DNA of 64,000 nucleotides, taken from assembly GCA_038062675.1 (NCBI GenBank), contig JBBTWP010000001.1:48920-112919 (forward strand), given 5' to 3'. The stretch is from Patescibacteria group bacterium. Lineage in GTDB: Bacteria; Patescibacteriota; Minisyncoccia; Phycocordibacterales; UBA1550. This document shows positions 7,437 to 54,585 of this stretch, one piece after another. The notes beneath the pieces are model-generated. The model ran no database searches and was not told the origin of the DNA. It was given only the letters and a program-made list of their open reading frames with translations. Made by a program: the position numbers and the translations under genes. The stretch's first letter is position 1. Each line of letters opens with the position of its first letter.

Positions 7437-7487
7437 GAAGAAGATTGACTTCGAATGGTTTTCAACATAGAATAAACATAAAATACA

Positions 7488-7913
7488 ATGGAAAATACTG
7501 GATTATTTTACGCAATAGGGGCAGCAGTGGTATGGGGGTTAGTGTACACCATCGACCAGAAGATTCTTTCTGAGGTCTCACCTCTTATGCTTTTGTTCAT
7601 AAATTCAATTGTTACCGTAGTAATCTTGTTGCCGTTTGTATTTTTTACCAACACGAAAACAGTTTTCGAAGTTGGTAAAATGGGGTTGCTGCTTATTCTT
7701 GGGGCTAGCTTGTTAGCAGCCCTCGCAAATTTTTTTATTTTTTCGTCAATCAAATCACTAAACGCTTCGACGGCGTCAATAATCGAAGTCTCATACCCAT
7801 TTTTTGTCGTCCTTTTTAGTTTTATTATTTTTCGTGCAGTTCCCAATATTTATTTTTTTCTCGGTGGAGCACTTATTTTTGCAGGAACGTTTGTCATTAT
7901 TAAGCTTGCATAA
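7488..7913 (+). CDS. EamA-like (DMT superfamily) small membrane transporter
   Basis: Four hydrophobic helices in a 141-aa single EamA-like domain. Confidence 0.55.
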   Translation: MENTGLFYAIGAAVVWGLVYTIDQKILSEVSPLMLLFINSIVTVVILLPFVFFTNTKTVFEVGKMGLLLILGASLLAALANFFIFSSIKSLNASTASIIEVSYPFFVVLFSFIIFRAVPNIYFFLGGALIFAGTFVIIKLA

Positions 7914-17894: not shown

Positions 17895-17927
17895 CAAGCA
17901 CCTTGAAGATGGCGATGTGATTGAGCT
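17895..17927 (+). repeat. degenerate in-frame copy of the ychF 3' end (33 bp)
   Basis: gaagatggcgatgtgattgagctttgtgtctag versus ychF 17723-17755 aaagacggcgatgtgattgagtttcgagtgtaa; 15-nt exact core, stop codon conserved. Confidence 0.7.
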
Positions 17928-17955
17928 TTGTGTCTAGGGGTGGTATAATTTTCGT

Positions 17956-19464
17956 ATGAAAATAAGACCCCTCTATCTTTTGTTTGCCATTTTTTTTGGG
18001 ATTCTCTCTTTTAGTTTGTTTTTGAGTGGTTCACTAGGTTATCCTGTTTCTAACCCTTTACTTGCAACGCTCCCAGTTACTTTTTATTCGGTTGTGATGG
18101 CTTCCACTCTTTTTTTTATTGCGCTTTCCCAATCCTACTTAACTTCCTTCTTTATTGCATTTTTTTACTTTTTATATGCATTTCATGGTTTGAAAGAAAA
18201 TGCATTCATCAAATCTACTTTATGGGCTCCTGTCATTCTGATTATGCTTGTATTTTGGGTGAGGTCAAATTCATATGGGTTTGAAGCAATTTTGTTTTTT
18301 GTTATTTTTTATGTAATTTTTCTTTTTTGTTTTGTCGTTGGGGTCATCCAGAGCCTTGTTGCTCGTTTTCGTCGCAAGCCCACTCTTGCGGCAATAGGGA
18401 ACAACTATTCACCGTCAGCGTTCCCCAGCACGTCCTTCGATGTTCGTTCAGGTTTGCCCTTAAATCAACAATACACGCCAACGAGCGTAGGACAAAGTGC
18501 TGGGTTCAAAAGCCCACCTTCGGGAAGTGAGCAATCAGTAAGTAGGTATCGTAGTACGCGTCGTACATTACTATTTGTGTGTATTGTCATTGTTATTTTT
18601 CTTGTTAGTTGGGGAGTTTTTAAACTTTTTGTTGACAAGAATGCTTTTCAAATTGAGAATATTCCACAAAGCAGTGTACTAAGTGGGGGTGAGTCGGTTC
18701 CAAAAGAAGAGGTAAGAAATACTGATGGAGTTTTGCAAAGCAGTATGTTAAAAGAACCCAAAGCAGATAGTAGAGAGCGCCAAATGATGGACTACATAAA
18801 AAAGTCACGAGGGGGCGGGGACAACATTTCAATTATTTCAGCGGCAAGGGATGTTCCAGTAGACTCAAATACTTTATTTTTTTCATTCAAATTTAAAAAT
18901 TTTAAGCAAAATTTGACCCTAGATGTATATGTGGATAAGGAGAAATTATATCACGCAGATGCAAAACAAGTTGGGGCAGAAAAGTGGATCCAATTCAACA
19001 CGATAGGCGTCGCGCCGTATCAAGGGAAAAATGTCATCTTGTCTTTTGTCATTGAGGGGGATAAAGGTTCTGGTTTGCAGATAGACGATTTAATTTTTGC
19101 ACAAGTTGAACCGATCGAGTCGGCAACCAAACTAGTTTCTGATGCCACTTTCGTTATAAGCAATCCTAAAAAAGATCAGGTGGTAAATAGCCCGTTAGTC
19201 GTTGAGGGAAAGGCTGATGCAAAACTATTTCCCGAAGGGTGGTTTCGTGTTAGGTTGACAGACGTCAACTACAGGAATATCGCCAGTGCAAATGCCACTG
19301 CCTCTGTCTATCCATTGGTAGCGGACAAAGACGGGAACATGCCTTTCTATACGAGGCTGGTATTTGATGCGAAAAGCGTTTCTACGGATAGTGGATTTCT
19401 TTTCCTCGACAGTAATGGAAGTGAAAATTTACCAGGCCTGCGCATTCCCGTGAGGTTTAGGTAG
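17956..19464 (+). CDS. membrane protein with C-terminal Gmad2 (GerM-like Ig) domain
   Basis: Five or six N-terminal TM helices; C-terminal VISNPKKDQVVNSPLVVEGKADAKLFPEGWFRVRLTD resembles the Gmad2 fold motif; extended -10 TGGTATAAT upstream. Confidence 0.5.
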   Translation: MKIRPLYLLFAIFFGILSFSLFLSGSLGYPVSNPLLATLPVTFYSVVMASTLFFIALSQSYLTSFFIAFFYFLYAFHGLKENAFIKSTLWAPVILIMLVFWVRSNSYGFEAILFFVIFYVIFLFCFVVGVIQSLVARFRRKPTLAAIGNNYSPSAFPSTSFDVRSGLPLNQQYTPTSVGQSAGFKSPPSGSEQSVSRYRSTRRTLLFVCIVIVIFLVSWGVFKLFVDKNAFQIENIPQSSVLSGGESVPKEEVRNTDGVLQSSMLKEPKADSRERQMMDYIKKSRGGGDNISIISAARDVPVDSNTLFFSFKFKNFKQNLTLDVYVDKEKLYHADAKQVGAEKWIQFNTIGVAPYQGKNVILSFVIEGDKGSGLQIDDLIFAQVEPIESATKLVSDATFVISNPKKDQVVNSPLVVEGKADAKLFPEGWFRVRLTDVNYRNIASANATASVYPLVADKDGNMPFYTRLVFDAKSVSTDSGFLFLDSNGSENLPGLRIPVRFR

Positions 19465-23598: not shown

Positions 23599-23638
23599 AC
23601 CAAACTCGCGCTCTTTTGAAGAAGGGCGCGAGTTTGGT
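23599..23638 (+). promoter_or_regulatory. 13-bp inverted repeat overlapping the leuS promoter region
   Basis: accaaactcgcgc...gcgcgagtttggt, immediately followed by the extended -10 TGGTATAAT at 23635-23643. Confidence 0.4.
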
Positions 23639-23652
23639 ATAATGTACTCTAC

Positions 23653-26106
23653 ATGACCCCCTACGACCACAAAACAATAGAAAAGAAGTGGCAGGCCGCA
23701 TGGGAAGCGAAACAGCTCTATCACACGAAGAGCGACTCTCTAAAGCCGAAAGCATACGTACTCGACATGTTCCCGTATCCGTCGGGAGACGGGCTCCATG
23801 TTGGACATCCAAAGGGGTACATTGCAACCGATATTTACTCGCGCATGAAGACTATGCAAGGGTACAATGTGCTTCACCCGATGGGGTGGGATGCGTTTGG
23901 CTTGCCCGCTGAACAATATGCTATTAAAAACAAAGTGCATCCCCGTGTGGCAGTCGACAAAAATGTTGCGCGGTATAAGGAGCAACTTTCGGTAATTGGT
24001 TTTAATTATGATTGGACACGCGAACTCAACACAACCGACCCAGCATTTTATAAATGGACGCAGTGGATCTTTTTGAAAATGTTTGAAAAGGGGCTTGCGT
24101 ATGAATCCTATGAGCCTATTAATTGGTGCCCAACGTGCCAAACGGGGCTTGCGAACGAAGACCTTGATGGTTGCAACTGCGAGCGTTGCGATACGCTGGT
24201 GGTAAAAAAACCAATGCGTCAGTGGGTGCTTCGTATTACAGATTATGCCGATCGTTTACTTGCGGATATTGATGCGCTTAATTGGCCTGTGTCGATAAAA
24301 GAATCTCAAAAGAATTGGATAGGGCGAAGCGAGGGTGCAGAGATTGATTTTGTTGTCGAGGGAAGTGAGAAAAAAATCACCGTGTTCACGACACGCCCCG
24401 ATACGCTCTTTGGGGCGACGTATGTGGTGCTTGCGCCCGAGAGCAAAATTTTGGAAGACCTTAAACAACAAATCCTAAACGGGAACGAAGTTTCTCTGTA
24501 TTGCGAGAGTGCAGGAAAACAAAGCGAGATTGAGCGAACGACCGTGGGGCGAGAGAAGACCGGCGTACGCCTCGATGGAGTGATGGCGATAAATCCGGCA
24601 AACAATGAGAAGCTTCCGGTTTTTGTTGCAGATTATGTTTTAGGGCATTATGGTACGGGTGCTGTGATGGCAGTGCCAGCGCATGATGAGCGGGATTTTG
24701 AGTTTGCGAGAAAGTTTGGACTACGAAACAGAAAGGTTGTGTTTCCGAATCCTCTCGTCAGTGTCCCGAGGAATGCGAAGGATATTGCCATGGGGGTTGT
24801 TGGTGAGTTGCGTGTGGTCACTGAGTGTTTTATGGGAAGTGGTGAGATGGTAAATTCGGATCGTTTTACGGGATTTTTTAATGAAGACGCAAAAAAGCCA
24901 ATCACTGATTTTGTTAAAGGGCGCTGGGTTACGAAATATCGCCTCAAGGATTGGGTCTTTTCGCGTCAACGATATTGGGGAGAACCAATCCCACTCATAC
25001 ACTGCGAGAAGTGTGGCGTAGTTCCTGTGCCCGAAAAAGATTTACCGGTTATACTTCCCAATGTGGAATCCTATGCACCGACAGGGACAGGGGAATCACC
25101 CCTCGCGGATATTTCTGAATGGGTGAACACAACATGTCCAAAGTGTAGTGGGAAAGGGAAGCGTGAGACCAACACTATGCCACAGTGGGCGGGTTCATCG
25201 TGGTACTATTTGCGCTATATTGATCCGAAAAATACCGAGATGCTCGTCGACAAAAAACAAGAAGCATATTGGTCGCCCGTGGATATGTATGTGGGTGGCG
25301 CCGAGCATGCAACGCGTCATCTCATCTACGCGCGTTTCTACCACAAGTTTCTCTACGATATTGGTGTTGTGAATTACGAGGAGCCGTTTAAGCGTCTTCA
25401 AAATGTCGGACTCATTATGGCGGAAGACGGACGCAAAATGAGCAAGCGATGGGGGAATGTGGTAAATCCAGATGATATTGTGGCAACCTATGGTGCTGAC
25501 ACCCTTCGCCTTTATGAAATGTTTATGGGGCCGTTTGGGCAGTCGGTAGTGTGGAGCACAGAGTCTATTATTGGCCCTCGCCGATTCATTGAGCGGGTGT
25601 GGCGACTTGCGGATAATGTGAAAGAGGGAGAAGGTGATGCCAAGCTTGAAGCGGTGCTTCATAAAACAATTAAAAAAGTGGGTGATGATATTGAATCATT
25701 TGGCTTCAATACGGCAATTTCGGCGCTTATGATTTTGGTAAATGAAATGGAAAAAGCGACGCAGGTTTCGCGCGTGCACTACGAAACCTTGCTCCGACTT
25801 TTGGCGCCATTTGCTCCCCATGTCGCTGAAGAACTGTGGTCACATGTTGGCAATGTCGAGTCGATTCATCTTGAATCTTGGCCAGTGTTTGATGCGACAA
25901 AAACTGTTACAAGTCAGGTGGTTATTGCGATTCAAGTGAATGGAAAAGTACGCGACACCATGACGGTTCCTGTTGAAACAGGAGAAGTCTCCGCAAGCAC
26001 TATGGCGCAAGAACGTCCTACTGTAGCAAAATGGATTTTTGGAAAAAAAATAAAGAGGGTAATTTTTGTACCACAAAAACTTTTGAATATTGTGGTAGAG
26101 GAGTAA
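23653..26106 (+). CDS. leuS: leucyl-tRNA synthetase
   Basis: HVGHPKGY HIGH motif, KMSKRWGN KMSKS motif, CP1 editing domain. Confidence 0.95.
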   Translation: MTPYDHKTIEKKWQAAWEAKQLYHTKSDSLKPKAYVLDMFPYPSGDGLHVGHPKGYIATDIYSRMKTMQGYNVLHPMGWDAFGLPAEQYAIKNKVHPRVAVDKNVARYKEQLSVIGFNYDWTRELNTTDPAFYKWTQWIFLKMFEKGLAYESYEPINWCPTCQTGLANEDLDGCNCERCDTLVVKKPMRQWVLRITDYADRLLADIDALNWPVSIKESQKNWIGRSEGAEIDFVVEGSEKKITVFTTRPDTLFGATYVVLAPESKILEDLKQQILNGNEVSLYCESAGKQSEIERTTVGREKTGVRLDGVMAINPANNEKLPVFVADYVLGHYGTGAVMAVPAHDERDFEFARKFGLRNRKVVFPNPLVSVPRNAKDIAMGVVGELRVVTECFMGSGEMVNSDRFTGFFNEDAKKPITDFVKGRWVTKYRLKDWVFSRQRYWGEPIPLIHCEKCGVVPVPEKDLPVILPNVESYAPTGTGESPLADISEWVNTTCPKCSGKGKRETNTMPQWAGSSWYYLRYIDPKNTEMLVDKKQEAYWSPVDMYVGGAEHATRHLIYARFYHKFLYDIGVVNYEEPFKRLQNVGLIMAEDGRKMSKRWGNVVNPDDIVATYGADTLRLYEMFMGPFGQSVVWSTESIIGPRRFIERVWRLADNVKEGEGDAKLEAVLHKTIKKVGDDIESFGFNTAISALMILVNEMEKATQVSRVHYETLLRLLAPFAPHVAEELWSHVGNVESIHLESWPVFDATKTVTSQVVIAIQVNGKVRDTMTVPVETGEVSASTMAQERPTVAKWIFGKKIKRVIFVPQKLLNIVVEE

Positions 26107-26234: not shown

Positions 26235-27263
26235 ATGTCAGCGATCACATTTAAGCCGAAACAAGTCGTAAAACGCCTCATGGCAATGCTGTCTCCTCGT
26301 GCTTTGGATGTTATTGTTAAACGCTATGGCTTAGGAGAAAGTGTGGATCGTATGACGTTGGAAGGGATTGGCGGTATTTACAATATTACTCGTGAGCGTG
26401 TGCGTCAGATCGAAAATTTTGCATTGACGACCATCAAAAAGTCGGATGCATTTAAAAAAGAAGCCGCTGTTTTCAAAGAGCTTCATGAGCTTATTATTAA
26501 AATGGGTGGCGTTGTTTGCGAAGAGGATTTTTTGATGCACGTTGCAAAAGATGCAAGTACGCAGAACCACCTTGCGCTACTCTTGGTTCTTGGTGATGAG
26601 TTTACGCGCGAGAAGGAAGATGAAAATTTTAGACACCGCTGGGTTGTTGATGATGCAACGTCTATGAAAGTGCACGACGCTTTAAAGGGTCTGTATTCAA
26701 GTCTTTCGAATGAAGATCTTGTGCCCGAGGGAGATATTGTGGGTGTTTTTTTAGGACACTTGAAAGAAGTTTCTGAAGAATACAAAAACGAGGAAATCAT
26801 TAAGCGATGGCTAGGACTTTCTAAGATGGTGGCAAAAAATCCATTGGGAGAGTGGGGTGTTGCGCACTCACCAAATGTAAACGCGCGGGGGATGCGCGAC
26901 TATGCGTATTTGATTATTCGCAAACATGGTTCGCCGATGCATTTTACAGAAGTTGCGAAAGCTATCACGGAAGTTTTTCATCGCAAGGCTCATGTTGCCA
27001 CTTGTCACAACGAACTCATTAAGGACAGTCGTTTTGTGTTGGTAGGACGGGGACTCTATGCGCTCTCTTCGTGGGGGTATGAGAAAGGTGTGGTAAAAGA
27101 TGTGGTTACGAAGATTTTAAAAAAGGAAGGACCACTTACCAAAAAAGAAATCATTGATCGTGTTTTGAAAGAGCGTTATGTAAAAGAGAATACGGTGTTT
27201 GTGAATTTACAGGATACGAAGTTTTTCAAAAAAACAAAAGAAGGAAAGTACGCCTTGATATAA
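26235..27263 (+). CDS. sigma-70 region-4-like HTH domain protein
   Basis: LEGIGGIYNITRERVRQIENFALTTIKK matches a sigma70 region-4 HTH; remainder uncharacterised. Confidence 0.55.
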   Translation: MSAITFKPKQVVKRLMAMLSPRALDVIVKRYGLGESVDRMTLEGIGGIYNITRERVRQIENFALTTIKKSDAFKKEAAVFKELHELIIKMGGVVCEEDFLMHVAKDASTQNHLALLLVLGDEFTREKEDENFRHRWVVDDATSMKVHDALKGLYSSLSNEDLVPEGDIVGVFLGHLKEVSEEYKNEEIIKRWLGLSKMVAKNPLGEWGVAHSPNVNARGMRDYAYLIIRKHGSPMHFTEVAKAITEVFHRKAHVATCHNELIKDSRFVLVGRGLYALSSWGYEKGVVKDVVTKILKKEGPLTKKEIIDRVLKERYVKENTVFVNLQDTKFFKKTKEGKYALI

Positions 27264-27271
27264 CAAGGGTT

Positions 27272-27310
27272 AAAAAAGGGTGCGGAAGGCGAAGCCTTCC
27301 GCACCCTTTT
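27272..27310. terminator. bidirectional rho-independent terminator
   Basis: aaaaagggtgcggaaggc-gaa-gccttccgcaccctttt perfect palindrome with flanking A and T runs. Confidence 0.85.
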
Positions 27311-30500: not shown

Positions 30501-31598
30501 ATGCCAAATAAAAAATCAACAACTTTAAAAAAACGTGTCTTCGTCGCCATGTCAGGGGGTGTAGACAGTTCCGTTGTTGCCGCGCTCTTGGTGAAAGAAG
30601 GGTACGCTGTCACCGGCGTTTTTATGAAAGTGTGGGAGCCTGATTTCTTGCCGTGCACATGGCGAGAAGAGCGACAGGATGCGATGCGTGTTGCCGCGCA
30701 TCTAGGGATACCACTTCTTACGTGGGATTTTGAACGCGAGTACAAAGAGGGTGTTGCCGACTACATGATTCGCGAGTACAAGGCAGGAAGGACCCCCAAT
30801 CCCGACGTGATGTGTAATAAGGAGGTAAAATTCGGTGCGTTTTTCCGTCGGGCTATCGCCATGGGGGCGGACTATGTTGCGACTGGTCATTATGCAAGAA
30901 TTGCGTTTGATCAACAGGAGGGCGTCTGTCGAATGTTTGCCGGAGTTGATGAGACAAAAGATCAGTCATATTTTTTGTGGACACTCGGGCAGGAAGAACT
31001 CAAAAAAACACTTTTCCCTATTGGGGAGTATAAAAAAATGAAAGTGCGGGCAATGGCAAAAAAGTTTGCATTGCCGACGGCAGAAAAAAAAGATAGCCAA
31101 GGGCTTTGCTTTGTGGGCAAGCTCGACATGAAAGATTTTCTTCTCCATTTTATGGAGAAAAAAGAAGGGGTGGTGGTGAATCAGGAAGGGGAACAGATCG
31201 GAACTCATCAAGGTGCATACTTTTATACACTCGGCGAGCGTCGCGGTTTTACGATTACAAAAAAAACGACTACCGAAACTCCTTACTACATTATTGCAAA
31301 AGATCTCGTTCAAAATACTTTGACCGTAGCACATAAAACGTCTGCGAAATCTTTGGAACAAGGAACAAAAGAAATACGAATCGCACAGATGAATGTGTGC
31401 GTAGGGGGTGTTTTCGATACTGAAAAAACCTATACAGCACGAATTCGCTATCATGGAGAGGCTCATGTCTGCAAAGCGCATAACCTGAATGGCACGTCTG
31501 CTATTTTGGAGTTTGAGAAACCTGTCCTTGTTGCTTCAGGGCAGTCTGTGGTGCTTTACGACAACGATGAGTGTGTGGGGGGTGGTATTGTGGAGTAA
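30501..31598 (+). CDS. mnmA: tRNA 2-thiouridine(34) synthase MnmA
   Basis: PP-loop VFVAMSGGVDSSV; catalytic cysteines. Confidence 0.9.
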   Translation: MPNKKSTTLKKRVFVAMSGGVDSSVVAALLVKEGYAVTGVFMKVWEPDFLPCTWREERQDAMRVAAHLGIPLLTWDFEREYKEGVADYMIREYKAGRTPNPDVMCNKEVKFGAFFRRAIAMGADYVATGHYARIAFDQQEGVCRMFAGVDETKDQSYFLWTLGQEELKKTLFPIGEYKKMKVRAMAKKFALPTAEKKDSQGLCFVGKLDMKDFLLHFMEKKEGVVVNQEGEQIGTHQGAYFYTLGERRGFTITKKTTTETPYYIIAKDLVQNTLTVAHKTSAKSLEQGTKEIRIAQMNVCVGGVFDTEKTYTARIRYHGEAHVCKAHNLNGTSAILEFEKPVLVASGQSVVLYDNDECVGGGIVE

Positions 31599-34060: not shown

Positions 34061-35851
34061 ATGATGAATTCACAAGAAATTAGACAGCGATTTCTGGCAT
34101 TTTTTGAGAAGCGGGGGCACGCCATTATTCCCTCGTCACCCCTGGTGCCCGAAAATGACCCTTCAGTGCTTTTTAATACTGCAGGTATGCAACCGCTCGT
34201 GCCGTATCTCATGGGTTCACCCCACCCCAGCGGAGCGCGTCTCGCGGACGCACAGAAGTGTGTGCGCACGGGCGACATCGACGAAATCGGCGACAATACG
34301 CATGTCACCTTTTTTGAAATGCTTGGCAATTGGTCACTCGGCGATTATTTCAAAGACGAGTCTATCAAGTGGAGCTATGAACTTCTAACCTCAAAAGAAG
34401 AAGGGTTTGGGCTTGATCCCAAGCGTCTCTATGTGACGGTGTTTGAAGGGAATGATGATGCTCCGCGTGATGAAGAATCTGCTGCTATTTGGAAAAAGAT
34501 TTTTGCAGACGCAGGGATTTCTGGCGAGCGTATTTATTTTTTGCCCGCAAAGTCAAACTGGTGGAGCCCTGGCGACAATGGTCCCTGTGGTCCTGACACG
34601 GAAATGTTTTATGATGTGACGGGTAAACTGACTGATGGTATGACCAAGGAGGAATACCTTGCAGCCGACGAACGACAAGAGGTGGTAGAGGTCTGGAACA
34701 ATGTGTTCATGGAATACGAGAAAAAAGAGGGCAAGGTGGTAGGTAAACTTGCGCAAAAAAACGTAGATACGGGTTCTGGGCTCGAGCGTATCACGATGGC
34801 AATACAGGGCAAGAACAATATTTTTGATACAGATTTGTTTGTGCCGGTTATGGAGAAAATTAAATCGGGGGCAACGCACTACGACGAGCGGGCAGCGCGC
34901 ATTGTTGCTGACCATATTCGTACTGCGGTGTTTATGATTGGGGATGGAGTACGACCATCGAACACTGACCAAGGGTATATTTTGCGCCGACTTCTCCGCC
35001 GCGCTGTGCGCTTTGCGGATGTTCTGGGGATGCCACAAGGGACTCTTGTTGGTCTTGTGCCGGTATTCGCAGAAAAATACCAGGGAGTCTACAAAAATGT
35101 GGGAGCACAAATAGAGCTTGTCACCAATGAAATTCGTGGTGAGGAGGAGAAGTTCCGAAAGACGCTGGAGCGCGGGATAAAAGAATTTTCGAGGATTCCT
35201 CGCGGTGGTAGTGTGAGTGGGGTGCAAGCAAGTACTATGTTTACCACGTTTGGTTTTCCGTTTGAAATGATTACTGAACTTGCAAAAGAGTCAGGGATCA
35301 CCGTTGACGAAGTCGGTTTCCGTGAAGAAATGAAAAAACACCAAGAGCTTTCTCGCGCCGGTGCAGAGCAAAAATTCAAAGGCGGGCTTGCGGATGCAAA
35401 CGAGACGACGGTGATGCTCCACACTTCGACTCACCTCATGCTTGCAGGGTTGCGCAAATATCTCGGTGACCACGTGCATCAAGCGGGCTCAAACATAACA
35501 GTCGAGCGCACACGTTTCGACTTTACGCATCCGGAAAAGGTATCGCGCGAAACACTCGACAAAGTAGAAGCGTATGTGAATGAAGCAATTGCAAAGAAAT
35601 GTGGCGTAACGATTGAGCAAATGCCAAAAGGTGAGGCGCAAAAAAGGGGAGTTGAGGGGAGTTTTTGGGAAAAATATCCCGATGTGGTCAATGTGTATAT
35701 GGTCAAAGCTTCAGATGGCACTGTGTACTCGCAGGAGCTCTGTGGTGGCCCGCATGTCGAAAGTACCGCAACTATCAAGGGTACATTCAAAATCATCAAA
35801 GAAGAGGCAGTTTCGCAAGGTGTCCGTCGCGTGAAGGCAGTCTTGGTTTAA
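34061..35851 (+). CDS. alaS: alanyl-tRNA synthetase, short form lacking C-terminal domain
   Basis: Class II core (FNTAGMQP, GDYFKDE) and editing HxxxH...CGGPHV motifs; only 596 aa. Confidence 0.9.
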   Translation: MMNSQEIRQRFLAFFEKRGHAIIPSSPLVPENDPSVLFNTAGMQPLVPYLMGSPHPSGARLADAQKCVRTGDIDEIGDNTHVTFFEMLGNWSLGDYFKDESIKWSYELLTSKEEGFGLDPKRLYVTVFEGNDDAPRDEESAAIWKKIFADAGISGERIYFLPAKSNWWSPGDNGPCGPDTEMFYDVTGKLTDGMTKEEYLAADERQEVVEVWNNVFMEYEKKEGKVVGKLAQKNVDTGSGLERITMAIQGKNNIFDTDLFVPVMEKIKSGATHYDERAARIVADHIRTAVFMIGDGVRPSNTDQGYILRRLLRRAVRFADVLGMPQGTLVGLVPVFAEKYQGVYKNVGAQIELVTNEIRGEEEKFRKTLERGIKEFSRIPRGGSVSGVQASTMFTTFGFPFEMITELAKESGITVDEVGFREEMKKHQELSRAGAEQKFKGGLADANETTVMLHTSTHLMLAGLRKYLGDHVHQAGSNITVERTRFDFTHPEKVSRETLDKVEAYVNEAIAKKCGVTIEQMPKGEAQKRGVEGSFWEKYPDVVNVYMVKASDGTVYSQELCGGPHVESTATIKGTFKIIKEEAVSQGVRRVKAVLV

Positions 35852-35914
35852 AGGGCATTCTCCTTATTGTTTATGCACCTATCTCATGCCCGAGCATGCT
35901 ATAAGGTGTAAAAA

Positions 35915-35923
35915 GGGGGGGGG
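35915..35923 (+). repeat. G9 homopolymer abutting the -35 box
   Basis: aaaaGGGGGGGGGttgaca. Confidence 0.8.
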
Positions 35924-35952
35924 TTGACAAATGGTTTGCTAGGTGATATACT
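35924..35952 (+). promoter_or_regulatory. consensus sigma70 promoter TTGACA-17-TATACT
   Basis: Perfect -35 at 35924-35929, 17-nt spacer, TATACT at 35947-35952; about 120-nt leader to the ATG at 36074. Confidence 0.65.
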
Positions 35953-35989
35953 ATTAACAATCTATTAGGAGATCTCAATAGAGCACATT

Positions 35990-36022
35990 GCAGACGTTTG
36001 AGTTGTAATGTCTGTTCTTTTA
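35990..36022 (+). promoter_or_regulatory. terminator-like hairpin within the 5' leader (candidate attenuator)
   Basis: gcagacg...atgtctg stem followed by ttcttttaa. Confidence 0.35.
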
Positions 36023-36073
36023 AACCAAATCGACTGGCGATAAAATCAAAGGCGATATTGCGGAGGATTTACC

Positions 36074-36697
36074 ATGAACGTAAGGTTCTATTTTGGCAGC
36101 AGTAAAAAGGCAATTGCAACTTACTTAAAATTGGGCTCAGACGTCCAAGGACATTATGTTGCGAGCGACGCCGACCCAAGAGACCCGACATTTATCTTGC
36201 GTGAGGAATTGCGTGAGAACATCTCTTTCGTTTCATGCCTCGTCCATCACTCCATCGTATCAAAGTGGCGTCTTCCAGACGGTGTTTCTTTTTGCAATAT
36301 CCCAGGGGTGGTGATTATTCATGATGCCCATCGCATCCCCAACTCTGAAGCTATTGTTAAGGCGCCAACGTGGGAGGCTCTATGTTCAGTATTTGAACAG
36401 CTCGAGAATCCAGAGTTGGTATACACTATGCCAAGGTCTAAATATCTCCTTGAACGTGCTTTGGAAAAGCAAATCGCAGCAGAAAAGGTCATTAAGTGGC
36501 TTCAAATTGATTGCAGTTGGATGAGTCACCGCATTGAATCTGATACAAGCCGTGCCTTGTTGACAGAGAAGGAAATTGGTCGGTTGAAGGCAGAAGTCCA
36601 TCAGTTGAAGCAGGATTTGGCAATTGCTAACAAGCGACCGTGGCGACGGAGTGCGAATTTTGCAAAATCGATTTGGAATCGTATGTGTGTAGAATGA
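36074..36697 (+). CDS. hypothetical protein (alpha/beta N-domain plus C-terminal coiled coil)
   Basis: GCGGAGGA RBS; alternating beta-alpha pattern; C-terminal heptad LTEKEIGRLKAEVHQLKQDLAIANKR. Confidence 0.45.
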   Translation: MNVRFYFGSSKKAIATYLKLGSDVQGHYVASDADPRDPTFILREELRENISFVSCLVHHSIVSKWRLPDGVSFCNIPGVVIIHDAHRIPNSEAIVKAPTWEALCSVFEQLENPELVYTMPRSKYLLERALEKQIAAEKVIKWLQIDCSWMSHRIESDTSRALLTEKEIGRLKAEVHQLKQDLAIANKRPWRRSANFAKSIWNRMCVE

Positions 36698-36757
36698 TGG
36701 GGGGAGTATAACCCTCATCCCCATGGCGGCTTTCTTAGGAAGGTCGCCATTTTTTTG
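36696..36757 (+). terminator. tandem hairpins plus T-tract (terminator)
   Basis: atgggg...ccccat then atggcggc...ggtcgccat followed by T7. Confidence 0.6.
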
Positions 36758-36835
36758 TATCTCTGGGTTGTTATTCACACTTATTTGATTATTATCTTGA
36801 AATAAAATTATTGTGCGTGGTATACTGTAAGAGTA

Positions 36836-38020
36836 ATGGCTTTTTCTTTTTTTTCCGAATCTGAAGATAAATCTCTCGTCCTACTAGTGGATGTTGGGTC
36901 GGGGAGTGTTGGAGGTGCTCTGGTAAGAATTTCTGCGGGAAAACCACCGCACGTTCTTGCTACGGTGCGTCGTAATATTGAATTTCAAAACGCTCTTTCG
37001 TCTGCTCGGTTTCTTCTGACAATGAATAATGCACTCGAGCAGACACTCAAAGATCTTCAGGGGTTCGCGAAAGGGCATGGTGCGCCATCGCAGATTTTTT
37101 GTACCCTCTCATCTCCGTGGTTTATTCTCAAAACTCGGCACTTGCGCGTTGTTCGAGGAGAACCTTTTGAAGTCTCTGAGCGAGTGGTAAAAGAATTTCT
37201 GGATGAAGAGATTTTAAAGTTAAAAGAAGAACTCGCCCTCACATTGCCACCCAAAGAGGTTGAAGTTATTGAAAAGAAAATCATTCAAATGAAATTGAAT
37301 GGTTATGAGCTCAAAAATCCGTATGGTCAAAAAACCTCACAAATGGAAATGGTGGTTGCTATTGGGGTTTCGTCTACGCGAGTTGTTGCGAGCATCAAGC
37401 GAAAAATCGGGCAAATTTTTCATACAAAATCGCTTAGGTTTGGGTCGTTTCCCCTTGTGGCATTCAGCGCCCTTCGTGATATTTTCCCTAACGAAAGGAA
37501 TTTTTTGTTCTTGGACATTACGGGAGAAGCGACTGATGTGTCGCTGGTAGAGCGAGATGTATTGTTGGGGAATTCTCTGTTTCCGCGGGGGAGGAATTTT
37601 TTTGTTCGAGAAATCTCAACTGCGCTTCACACTGTACACGAAGAAGCGGAATCATTATTCAATATGCATGTGCGTGGTGAGCTTGCTGGGCCCAAAAAAG
37701 TTGCAGTTGCAGATATTATTGAGCGTAGTCGTGTTGAATGGTTGGACCGTTTCGAAAAGGCACTCGCAGTCCTCGCAGGAGAAGGCACGCTGCCCCGTAC
37801 GGTGTTCTTTCTTGCAGACGCTGATGTCGCCGCCTTTTTCTCGGAAGTCATCAATGGCGCACAGTCAAAGTTTTTACTTAACAATGGATTTGAGTCACGA
37901 TTCCTGGATGCACTCATCACTATGCAGTTTGTAGGTTTTGAAAGCGGAGTGATTCGTGACCCGTTTTTGGTTGTCCTAGCGCTCCTCGCTCACAAGGAAT
38001 TAACCGCTTCCGAATCCTAG
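36836..38020 (+). CDS. actin-like ATPase fold protein (ASKHA; FtsA/PilM-like)
   Basis: Phosphate-1-like LLVDVGSGSVGGALV and phosphate-2-like FLFLDITGEATDVSLV motifs. Confidence 0.4.
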   Translation: MAFSFFSESEDKSLVLLVDVGSGSVGGALVRISAGKPPHVLATVRRNIEFQNALSSARFLLTMNNALEQTLKDLQGFAKGHGAPSQIFCTLSSPWFILKTRHLRVVRGEPFEVSERVVKEFLDEEILKLKEELALTLPPKEVEVIEKKIIQMKLNGYELKNPYGQKTSQMEMVVAIGVSSTRVVASIKRKIGQIFHTKSLRFGSFPLVAFSALRDIFPNERNFLFLDITGEATDVSLVERDVLLGNSLFPRGRNFFVREISTALHTVHEEAESLFNMHVRGELAGPKKVAVADIIERSRVEWLDRFEKALAVLAGEGTLPRTVFFLADADVAAFFSEVINGAQSKFLLNNGFESRFLDALITMQFVGFESGVIRDPFLVVLALLAHKELTASES

Positions 38021-39403: not shown

Positions 39404-39463
39404 TCTATTCGAGCGTTTACCTATTGACGGCGCAAGTATTATTTGATACCATAAAAGTTCGCA

Positions 39464-39682
39464 ATGGCAGAAACAGAAAAAGTTGAGGAATTAGTACAAG
39501 GGGAGGTCATCGAAGCCCTCCCCAGCACTATGTTTCGTGTTCAGTTTCCTGACGGAAACGTACTCATAAGTTACCTTGCGGGCAAGATGCGATTTAATCG
39601 TATCAAGGTTTTAGTGGGGGATAAAGTGTTTGTAAAAATTGACCCCTATGGCGGTAAAGGACGCATTGTAAAACGCCTTTAG
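39464..39682 (+). CDS. infA: translation initiation factor IF-1
   Basis: 72-aa S1-like OB fold (GKMRFNRIKVLVGDKV). Confidence 0.9.
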   Translation: MAETEKVEELVQGEVIEALPSTMFRVQFPDGNVLISYLAGKMRFNRIKVLVGDKVFVKIDPYGGKGRIVKRL

Positions 39683-48711: not shown

Positions 48712-48748
48712 AAAAATCGCTAACGAATGGGCACTTGACAAGTAGCCG

Positions 48749-48785
48749 CATAAAAAGGTATGCTCTTTACATGGTAGTAGCGCTC
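48749..48785 (+). promoter_or_regulatory. TTGACAAGT...CATAAAA promoter-like motif, copy 1
   Basis: cacttgacaagtagccgcataaaaaggtatgct; the same motif recurs at 50636 and 51235. Confidence 0.4.
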
Positions 48786-48875
48786 AAAAGCATCTTTGTC
48801 GGATATTCATATAGCTATTATAGCTCACGCAGATGAGACTTGTTTAAGGTGCTGAAAAAATAATTTCAACCTCTC

Positions 48876-48908
48876 AAACTGGCCTCATCCGAGGCCAGTT
48901 TGTTCTTT
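48876..48908 (+). terminator. rho-independent terminator
   Basis: aaactggcctc-atcc-gaggccagttt plus T-run. Confidence 0.8.
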
Positions 48909-48948
48909 ATACGATTAAAATCGGATTATAATTTATAGGAGGTGTGCC

Positions 48949-49641
48949 ATGTTTGTTGCGAACTCTCTTGATGGAGGTATTTGCAAAATATCAGATTGGT
49001 CCGAGCAGCTGGCTACGCTTACTCGGACTGCCTGGACAGGTAAAGATGGTAAATGTTATTTTCCTTACCTACCCCTTACTACAAAGGAACATTGGGAACA
49101 ATCTGTGCTTAAGCAATGGGAAAGTAATGAGATGGTTTCATGGGTTCTAGTTTCAGGCCATGGGCGAATCCTTGCTCACGTGGCTGTTGTTAAAAGGCAC
49201 GGATATCACGAGCTCGGTAGGTTTGTTGCTTATCCTGATAGTCCTAAAAATGCAGTCACCAGTCTTTGTTATGAAGCGATGAGCTACGTTTCAGTTATTG
49301 GAGACCCCGTACTTGTTGAAACGACTCAGGCTCACACTGCTTCGCAATTTATTTGCGAGAAGATTGGGCTCAGATTTGCGGGCATTGGATTTCTTTCCGT
49401 TGTTGATGATATATCGTGGGACATAATTTACTACGATAATCTCGATGTTGAAGATTTTGTTCCGCAAGAAGGTATTCTCGGGGACCCCCTCCGTAAACCA
49501 GTTGTTCGTCTACCAGAGCATAAAGACAGACTTGAGATAGTTCGCGGAATTCTTTCTTGTGAGCAGGGTGGAGATATTCCACCATCAAAATTTCATGTCT
49601 TGCCACATCGACTTGAAGTAGTTCGATTAATCGTTAGTTAA
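48949..49641 (+). CDS. hypothetical protein, possibly GNAT-fold N-domain
   Basis: Strong SD AGGAGGTG; GNAT-like segment ...HGYHELGRF...QFICEKIGLRFAGIG; weak call. Confidence 0.35.
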   Translation: MFVANSLDGGICKISDWSEQLATLTRTAWTGKDGKCYFPYLPLTTKEHWEQSVLKQWESNEMVSWVLVSGHGRILAHVAVVKRHGYHELGRFVAYPDSPKNAVTSLCYEAMSYVSVIGDPVLVETTQAHTASQFICEKIGLRFAGIGFLSVVDDISWDIIYYDNLDVEDFVPQEGILGDPLRKPVVRLPEHKDRLEIVRGILSCEQGGDIPPSKFHVLPHRLEVVRLIVS

Positions 49642-53522: not shown

Positions 53523-53892
53523 TGTACTATTCACGGGCGCAGGGGAAGCTATTCAGAATGGCACGGCAGGTGACTTGTATGTCAGAATTCACGTCGCCCC
53601 ACATAAAGTATTCCATCGTGAGGGACAAAATCTCGTTATGCATCTTTCAGTGAAATTCACTGACGCTATTTTGGGCGCCGAATATCCAATAGAAACATTG
53701 GACGGCAAAATAGATTTGTCGATTCCGAAAGGGGTGTCGTCGGGTGAGGTTCTGCGTGTGCGCGGCAAAGGGGTGCCCATGGGCGCCAAGCACCGTGGCG
53801 ACCTCCTTATAAAGCTTGAAATAAAAACCCCCACCAAACTTTCCCGCCAAGCACTCAAGCTTGTTGAAGAACTGCGGGGGGAAGGTGTATAA
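53523..53892 (+). pseudogene. truncated duplicate of the dnaJ 3' end (C-terminal domain fragment)
   Basis: About 95% nt identity to 47270-47630, including a ~170-nt identical core; no J-domain or zinc finger. Confidence 0.85.
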
Positions 53893-53895
53893 TGA

Positions 53896-54585
53896 ATGTA
53901 CATGAATTTATTTTCTTGGACCCCGTTTATTTTGCAGACAATGGTATACCCGTTCACATGGGTCGGGTTAAGATTTTTTACACACATTCGTATCTTGGGA
54001 GAAGAAAATTTAGTGGGACATACACAAGGAGTAATCTTTGCTGTTAATCATCTCAGTGAACTTGACCCAATTCTAATCCCTGCAACACTGAATCCTTTTT
54101 CTCCTTTAATGCCTATGTTTTATACCGCTCGTGAGCGGTTTTTTTATGAAAAAAAAGGGCTTGCACAGTATTTTTATGGAGGCACCTTTTTTAAACTTTG
54201 GGGAGCATACACTGCGTATGTTGGGACAGGGGATCTCGCTTTGTCGCTTAGGCACCATATTCGCATTCTGAAAAAAGGAAAGAGCGTATGCATTTTCCCT
54301 GAGGGAGGTAAAATTCCAGAAGGAGTTATTATTGAGGGGAAAACCGGTGTTGCGTATTTGTTGTGGAGAACAGGGGTGCCAGTAATTCCTGTTGCTATGC
54401 GCGGACACTATAAAATGACTTCTCGAGAGTTTTGTGCGCGTACGCGCACAATCACGGTTTCATATGGAAAACCCATCACAAAGCAAGAACTTTTTAATTT
54501 GCGCCCAGATCCTGGGGTGGTACCCACGCGAGAAGAACTTCGTACTGCCACACATATCATTATGTCGCGTATTCGTGAGATGTAA
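53896..54585 (+). CDS. plsC: 1-acyl-sn-glycerol-3-phosphate acyltransferase (LPLAT family)
   Basis: NHLSELD (HX4D) and FPEGG motifs. Confidence 0.8.
   Translation: MYMNLFSWTPFILQTMVYPFTWVGLRFFTHIRILGEENLVGHTQGVIFAVNHLSELDPILIPATLNPFSPLMPMFYTARERFFYEKKGLAQYFYGGTFFKLWGAYTAYVGTGDLALSLRHHIRILKKGKSVCIFPEGGKIPEGVIIEGKTGVAYLLWRTGVPVIPVAMRGHYKMTSREFCARTRTITVSYGKPITKQELFNLRPDPGVVPTREELRTATHIIMSRIREM

Follow-up and report, generated by a model that had tools for sequence, protein, structure and literature searches.

A predicted structured 5′ untranslated leader upstream of an accessory gene in Candidatus Yonathbacteria

Terminator riboswitches and transcription attenuators, such as the trp, T-box, PyrR and TRAP leaders, combine a strong promoter with a long leader in which a hairpin and a T-run precede the Shine-Dalgarno (SD) sequence. 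In the ompA, aprE and ermC mRNAs, 5′ stem-loops protect against 5′-end-dependent decay, and in a further group of leaders, including the ROSE and fourU thermometers, translational riboswitches and the ermC/cat leaders, the SD is masked by pairing. To our knowledge, little work has addressed native cis-regulatory RNAs in the phylum Patescibacteria. Here we describe a leader from Candidatus Yonathbacteria (Patescibacteria) in Hainich groundwater that shares the first of these layouts, with promoter, hairpin, T tract and SD following one another in the order expected of an attenuator. A sequence-only reading of this DNA had proposed a candidate riboswitch or attenuator; in such a model the hairpin and its U tract would form a conditional intrinsic terminator, at which a ligand, a protein or the ribosome decides on read-through. 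Were such a switch real, it would be among the first native cis-regulatory RNAs tied to a gene of Patescibacteria and a starting point for studying an accessory gene that is otherwise an orphan.

The locus lies in a 64,000-nt stretch of DNA (the window, by which we mean the whole stretch analysed) on a 265-kb ENA contig, and the window's FtsA-like and AlaRS proteins group with those of Yonathbacteria MAGs. Its promoter, on the plus strand at 35924-35952, is the top-scoring promoter match within 34500-37500 and is of the sigma-70 type (TTGACA-17-TATACT, matched at 11 of 12 positions), with the -35 TTGACA at 35924-35929, a spacer of 17 nt, the -10 TATACT at 35947-35952 and an extended -10 TG (TGaTATACT). 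The counterpart in a relative, L001 (Logan SRR34294545), reads TTGACA-17-TATAAT and has a TG in the equivalent position. From the end of the -10 to the ATG at 36074 there are 121 nt, and a plus-strand SD, GGAGGA (36062-36067), lies 6 nt 5′ of this ATG. Based on the position of the -10, we infer that transcription starts near 35959, which would give a 5′ untranslated leader of ~115 nt (35959-36073, plus strand). The sequence-only reading had placed the -10 about 120 nt before the ATG and described a strong promoter feeding a long leader; both descriptions hold, and each of the elements it listed (promoter, hairpin, T-rich tail, ribosome-binding site and ATG) was recovered at its coordinates. 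Immediately 5′ of the -35 hexamer is a G9 homopolymer (35915-35923), a run that four further Hainich assemblies from this organism (L002-L005) share unchanged and that L001 lacks.

Promoter and leader are part of an accessory cassette of ~0.94 kb (35852-36795, plus strand), made up of a variable spacer, the promoter, the leader, the gene orf207 and a terminator. The cassette extends from the alaS stop codon to the promoter of an FtsA-like gene (36836-38020), whose separate, conserved promoter lies at 36797-36826. In L001, the sole other assembly with the cassette, the order from alaS to orf207 is as in the window. In L016 the cassette is absent and the alaS stop is followed by 15 nt and then by the identical FtsA-like promoter, the FtsA-like gene itself having 92% nucleotide identity to that of the window; L010, also without the cassette, has alaS, 35 nt and then the FtsA-like gene. 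More distant Yonathbacteria carry different genes 5′ of the FtsA-like gene. Judged by its presence and absence in relatives, the ~0.94 kb at 35852-36795 is an autonomous present-or-absent unit. No regulator gene was found inside it.

We compared synteny 5′ of the FtsA-like gene in L010, L011, L013, L014, L015 and L016. Downstream, the Yonathbacteria order is kept (FtsA-like gene, a 450-aa protein, infA, rpsM, rpsK, rpsD, rpoA, rplQ), and the gene 5′ of the FtsA-like gene varies almost every time, being alaS, rpsP, a reversed 210-aa ORF or another gene. By this comparison of gene order, the site 5′ of the FtsA-like gene is a synteny breakpoint that accumulates accessory DNA. The 210-aa gene found there in L013 and L015 was considered as a relative of orf207 and rejected as unrelated.

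orf207 (36074-36697, plus strand) encodes a 207-aa protein of no known family. When 5.8 billion protein clusters were searched by word index, only orf207 itself and one 56%-identical protein were returned, and exhaustive HMMER comparison with 1.84 billion representatives gave only orf207 itself and one 5975-aa protein. The latter, a giant protein of the representative library with ~47 near-identical repeats of ~126 residues each, was rejected as a homologue: its 260 bits are the sum over 47 near-identical repeats, one of which shares 12 of 39 residues with orf207. There was no match to orf207 in Pfam, NCBIfam, PHROG, PADLOC (best score just 13.6 bits) or the PDB, no match to orf207 or the cassette in phage, plasmid or viral collections, and no confirmed match in protein-pattern scans of metagenome and viral contigs. 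The AlphaFold model (pLDDT 48) was too poor for a structure search. We also rejected a type III toxin-antitoxin system (ToxIN-like), which would have tandem RNA repeats of ~34-36 nt before the terminator and a ToxN/AbiQ-family toxin, as a repeat finder detected no direct repeats in 35900-36100 and orf207 matched neither a Pfam nor a PADLOC family.

Compared with L001, codons 1-135 of orf207 in the window have a dN/dS of ~0.33-0.35 and indels are in frame; orf207 is therefore probably a real coding gene. Its N-terminal 135 residues are conserved in L001, and the C-terminal ~70, predicted to be helical, are unrelated (window 36480-36697 compared with L001 6410-6636). The gene thus appears, from this alignment, to be modular with a swapped tail. 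The L001 copy also has an in-frame insertion of six codons that resembles a local duplication (EWRLM/SKWRL). Downstream of orf207 is a strong intrinsic terminator on the plus strand (36723-36757), consisting of a 12-pair stem (36723-36750) and T7, with an energy of -18.9 kcal/mol (z = -4.9) and conserved in L001. The sequence-only reading had the promoter controlling several genes; with this terminator after orf207 and a separate promoter for the next gene, it serves a single one.

The leader differs from its surroundings in the window, where most good intergenic sigma-70-like promoters end 2-14 nt before start codons (17921-17956, 23616-23653, 36797-36836, 39424-39464, 7445-7488 and 53864-53896), an arrangement that implies leaderless or near-leaderless mRNAs. 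For the FtsA-like gene, the spacing from promoter to ATG is kept in L001, L011, L012 and L016. In a survey of 55 plus-strand gene starts, most had no recognisable SD and a strong SD was present at ~6 (5428, 7004, 36074, 48949, 50712 and 52570). Only the orf207 cassette and the region at 48735-48949 combine a long distance between promoter and start with a strong SD in the window. The leader is therefore unusual for this genome, which fits a separately acquired autonomous cassette as well as a dedicated regulator. The main value of the locus lies in this contrast: most genes of this genome lack an SD and most promoters sit right at the start codon, and the inserted cassette combines a long leader with a strong SD and a consensus promoter.

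Three further sites lie elsewhere in the window. At 48735-48764 is a promoter, TTGACA-18-TATGCT, followed 7 nt later by the ATG of a 21-codon ORF, MVVALKSIFVGYSYSYYSSRR (48772-48837), and at 48875-48902 a strong hairpin with a T tract (-20.7 kcal/mol) lies 5′ of the gene at 48949; the stretch 48735-48910 may form a leaderless unit for a small protein or a small RNA, or merely hold the terminator of the upstream gene. An intergenic, promoter-like minus-strand site at 17897-17870 (TTGACA-16-TATACT, 11 of 12 positions) points away from the plus-strand promoter at 17921; as no minus-strand gene lies downstream of it, its product may be an antisense or small RNA. Finally, a very stable hairpin at 27277-27307 (-28.3 kcal/mol, AGGGUGCGGAAGGC...GCCUUCCGCACCCU), is located 3′ of a gene that ends at 27263, in the intergenic gap, and overlaps the GTG (27280) at which the following ORF nominally starts. 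This hairpin probably terminates the gene ending at 27263, in which case the next gene probably starts further downstream.

Prefix (co-transcriptional) and constrained folding predicted three hairpins, P1, P2 and P3, independently for the window and L001. Folded as a whole, the leader (-23.0 kcal/mol) is not more structured than its shuffles (-22.3 ± 3.5, z = -0.2). P2, the terminator-like hairpin (35990-36015, plus strand), pairs GCAGACGUU (35990-35998) with AAUGUCUGU (36007-36015) across a loop of 8 nt. Its nine pairs include three G-C and two G-U, the base of the stem being rich in A-U/G-U, and it folds with a predicted -10.4 kcal/mol (z = -3.1 relative to shuffles). The sequence 3′ of P2, TCTTTTAAAC (36016-36025), begins with the T-rich tail TCTTTT (36016-36021, plus strand), which reads TCTTTC in L001. 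When the leader was shuffled 1000 times with its dinucleotides preserved, 19 shuffles contained a hairpin and T tract at least as stable as P2, so the element is locally unusual; window-wide, dozens of matches as good as P2 are found inside coding sequence.

The rarity of this element among leader shuffles would suit a transcription attenuator, as would the full conservation of the P2 stems in L001, where both substitutions are located in the loop. However, at about -10 kcal/mol P2 falls short of the real intergenic terminators of the window, which have G+C-rich stems and range from -14 to -28 kcal/mol, and its U tract, interrupted in the window (UCUUUU), becomes shorter through the sole tail substitution in L001 (UCUUUC). 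The terminator-like hairpin that had been noted before the ribosome-binding site is thus present together with its TCTTTT, but it is far weaker than the terminators this genome uses elsewhere.

The remaining components of a terminating switch were sought by homology and by folding. Rfam scans of the whole window gave no match at the gathering score and, at E ≤ 1, a single unrelated snoRNA match outside the leader; in 35800-36200, at E ≤ 10, there were just two spurious snoRNA matches (16 and 12.6 bits). The Infernal/Rfam scan that the sequence-only reading had called for hence assigned the leader to no family, even at the permissive threshold, and this counts against a riboswitch or attenuator. 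Prediction of alternative terminator and antiterminator folds, likewise proposed at the outset, revealed no upstream competitor of P2 in either the window or L001. With either P2 arm blocked, the most favourable remaining fold as far as the U tract was 8-10 kcal/mol worse, and the only alternative partner of the P2 5′ arm, at 36023-36036, lies 3′ of the U tract and therefore cannot serve as an antiterminator. Only ~30 nt are available 5′ of P2; they form a variable stem-loop, are the least conserved part of the leader and, judged by their sequence, would be poor material for an aptamer. No sensor (aptamer, tRNA or protein site, or leader peptide) and no ORF was found upstream of P2, and T-box and leader-peptide attenuation layouts were rejected on this basis and on the lack of an Rfam match.

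Pattern searches gave a similar picture: the P2 hairpin pattern had four chance matches in 185,579 species genomes, with no similarity in the flanks, and none in viral contigs. Literature searches on leaderless genes, riboswitches and SDs in Patescibacteria yielded nothing relevant to this locus. With no Rfam match, no antiterminator, no upstream sensor and a weak hairpin, the riboswitch or attenuator layout read from the order of the elements is not supported by these sequence and folding tests, and we regard a conditional terminator as improbable.

P1 (35961-35982, plus strand) is predicted to begin 2-3 nt from the 5′ end of the transcript. L001 and the window differ in both its loop and its 5′ arm, with the pairing retained or extended and one C-G pair changed to U-G: the 21 nt after the -10 are strongly diverged in L001, still pair with the unchanged P1 3′ arm, and form extra pairs there, including G-U. 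P1 has a predicted energy of -4.2 kcal/mol in the window, and its L001 version reaches -11.0 kcal/mol (z = -6.4).

The same positions could be read as DNA, namely as a palindromic operator, TYTATT-N10-AATAGA (35961-35982), that overlaps the start site and would be recognised by a repressor dimer. Repressor operators are typically located just 3′ of the -10, where P1 also lies, and L001 retains the half-sites and their 10-bp spacing with a different spacer sequence. Even so, we consider an operator very improbable, because the added complementarity in L001 depends on G-U pairs that extend into the spacer (-11 kcal/mol), which a DNA site would not need; furthermore, the left half-site is altered in L001, and the cassette has no regulator gene.

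P1 and P2 together might alternatively delimit a short RNA of ~60 nt, ending at the U tract, as the main product of the promoter, with the mRNA arising by read-through. Promoter, two hairpins and U tract are laid out suitably for such an RNA. Against this, P2 is a weak terminator, P1 varies in sequence, conservation within the leader is highest 3′ of P2, and no Rfam family was matched; we find this reading barely credible.

P3 is an imperfect hairpin (36027-36070, plus strand) in which 36027-36042 pairs with 36056-36070. It was predicted in both sequences at about -8 kcal/mol and is not significant against shuffles (z from -0.3 to -0.65). P3 covers four of the six SD bases, and G36062, G36063, G36066 and A36067 have a low probability of being unpaired in both the window and L001. 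A tandem AAATC(N3-4)GGCGATA repeat at 36027-36057 overlaps P3 and is under the threshold of the repeat finder; we treat it as chance, and a pattern of two AAATC-N-GGCGATA units had no match in JGI metagenomes. The leader also contains a possible plus-strand upstream ORF of 11 codons, MSVLLNQIDWR (36008-36043), of doubtful status. It is in frame with orf207 and intact in L001 with one Leu-to-Ser change; it has no SD, and its ATG lies within the P2 3′ arm. An antisense 40-aa ORF (36191-36069) and an open frame 0 through the leader had no independent support; both are intact in L001 because the DNA is near-identical.

An alternative helix between 35991-36004, in the P2 5′ arm, and 36023-36036, on the anti-SD strand, was predicted in both sequences, ~4.7-4.9 kcal/mol above the P2 state. 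Together with the partial pairing of the SD in the ensemble, and with an upstream ORF that is intact in both genomes and overlaps the P2 3′ arm and the anti-SD strand, this helix would be compatible with a translational switch of an undescribed, lineage-restricted class. In such a switch P2 and P3 would mask the SD, or the P2 5′ arm would capture the anti-SD strand, and the trigger may be temperature, a ligand, a protein, for which the orf207 product is a candidate, or, in the manner of ermC/cat attenuation, ribosomes on the 11-codon upstream ORF. However, neither strand of this helix varies between the two genomes, and comparable alternatives are easily found in any 115-nt RNA. P3 is weak and not significant, and the upstream ORF lacks an SD, has its AUG buried in P2 and carries a non-synonymous change as its sole substitution. 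A switch of this kind is, in our assessment, distinctly improbable.

The sequence-only reading had named a lack of conservation in relatives among the points that would count against it; the leader is kept in the sole known relative that carries the cassette. Between the window and L001, 96 of 100 positions at 35974-36073 are identical and the promoter hexamers are retained, and neither the 3′ half of orf207 nor the DNA 5′ of the -35 can be aligned. Two of the four differences fall in the P2 loop, one in the linker and one in the apical region of P3, all at positions predicted to be unpaired; with ~44% of positions unpaired, such a distribution would arise by chance with a probability of ~0.04. 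With two distinct sequences (n = 2), covariation analysis found no compensatory change, 31 of 32 pairs being invariant.

Flanking genes differ between the window and L001 at 0.32-0.57 of synonymous sites, and the leader (4/100) is less diverged than the synonymous sites of the alaS 3′ end (25/67, p = 3e-8) and of orf207 codons 61-135 (18/48, p = 3e-7). There is no significant difference between the leader and the synonymous sites of the first 60 codons of orf207 (5/38, 0.13; p = 0.11). Identity is mosaic along the 6.8-kb synteny block, with perfectly identical runs of 104 nt (30921-31024) and 95 nt (31260-31354) in mnmA despite an overall synonymous divergence of 0.32 in that gene. The alignment thus suggests recombination between these Yonathbacteria lineages. 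Given the mosaic pattern and the low divergence of codons 1-60, a recently shared or recombined block from ~35974 to ~36245 would explain the similarity of the leader about as well as selection on RNA.

In a rival reading the leader has no dedicated function: it would then be a spacer with incidental hairpins, and its similarity to L001 would reflect recent ancestry or recombination from the promoter to codon ~57. The low divergence that continues into codons 1-60 (0.13, against 0.32-0.57 in flanking genes), the mosaic identity with its perfect 95-104-nt runs in mnmA, and a whole-leader fold at z = -0.2 are in line with this view, as is the cassette itself, which is an indel among close relatives with a swapped 3′ half and so has a history of recombination. 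However, a mere spacer would not readily account for the 21 diverged nt after the -10 that still pair with the unchanged P1 3′ arm, for four substitutions that all avoid the predicted stems, or for a P2 that is unusual for the composition of the leader (19/1000 shuffles), and a leader of 115 nt is costly and atypical in a compact, largely leaderless genome. The diverged but pairing P1 and the stem-avoiding substitutions lean the comparison towards RNA structure, and we regard a functionless spacer as unlikely, if deserving of serious weight.

We therefore tentatively place first, at somewhat less than an even chance, an account in which the region is the 5′ UTR of a self-contained accessory unit, with three hairpins of which P1 stabilises the transcript and P3 dampens translation. 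If the leader starts near 35959 and folds in vivo as predicted, P1 would, by analogy with known 5′ stem-loops, most likely shield the transcript from 5′-end-dependent decay. Since alaS has no obvious terminator, transcripts that read through from it would not have P1 at their 5′ end. P2 would be a conserved small hairpin and at most a weak pause site or leaky terminator, and P3, in the folding model, would hold part of the strong SD in a helix with sequence 5′ of it, thereby damping translation initiation. With P1 stabilising and P3 damping initiation in this model, control is taken to be post-transcriptional and, if there is any, would act on mRNA stability and ribosome access and not through a metabolite-sensing terminator switch. 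On present evidence, the element is best read as an ordinary, lineage-restricted structured 5′ UTR of an accessory gene.

Compared with described systems, the leader resembles the trp, T-box, PyrR and TRAP leaders in layout, but it lacks their aptamer-sized conserved region, upstream leader peptide and predicted antiterminator; its hairpin is weak, its interrupted U tract degrades further in L001, and it is known from two genomes only. The cassette as a whole recalls phage morons, which are likewise monocistronic, have their own strong promoter and terminator, carry an orphan gene and are present or absent between conserved genes; as an autonomous unit of this kind it occurs in the window and L001 and is absent from L016 and L010. 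Unlike morons, however, it is flanked by housekeeping genes (alaS on one side; the FtsA-like gene, infA and ribosomal protein genes on the other) and not by prophage genes, and no phage or mobile-element context was found in phage, plasmid and viral collections.

Among SD-masking leaders, P3 likewise pairs part of the SD, and here too a pairing of the anti-SD strand with the P2 5′ arm, mutually exclusive with this masking, is predicted and a short upstream ORF runs over the masking strand. The leader nevertheless has neither the U(U/C)GCU motif of ROSE elements nor the four-U motif of fourU thermometers, and in contrast to established SD-masking leaders its P3 helix is not significant against shuffles and has no known inducer. 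In ermC/cat attenuation the upstream ORF precedes the masking strand, whereas here it overlaps that strand, has no ribosome-binding site and has its AUG paired in P2. With regard to the 5′ stabilisers of E. coli ompA, B. subtilis aprE and ermC, the P1 of the window is weak (-4.2 kcal/mol) and the 5′ end is predicted from the -10; P1 is likewise placed near the (predicted) 5′ end, and its stem is likewise maintained despite sequence drift between relatives. By their resemblance to 5′ stabilisers and SD-masking leaders, stabilisation of the transcript and damping of its translation would be the likeliest roles of this leader.
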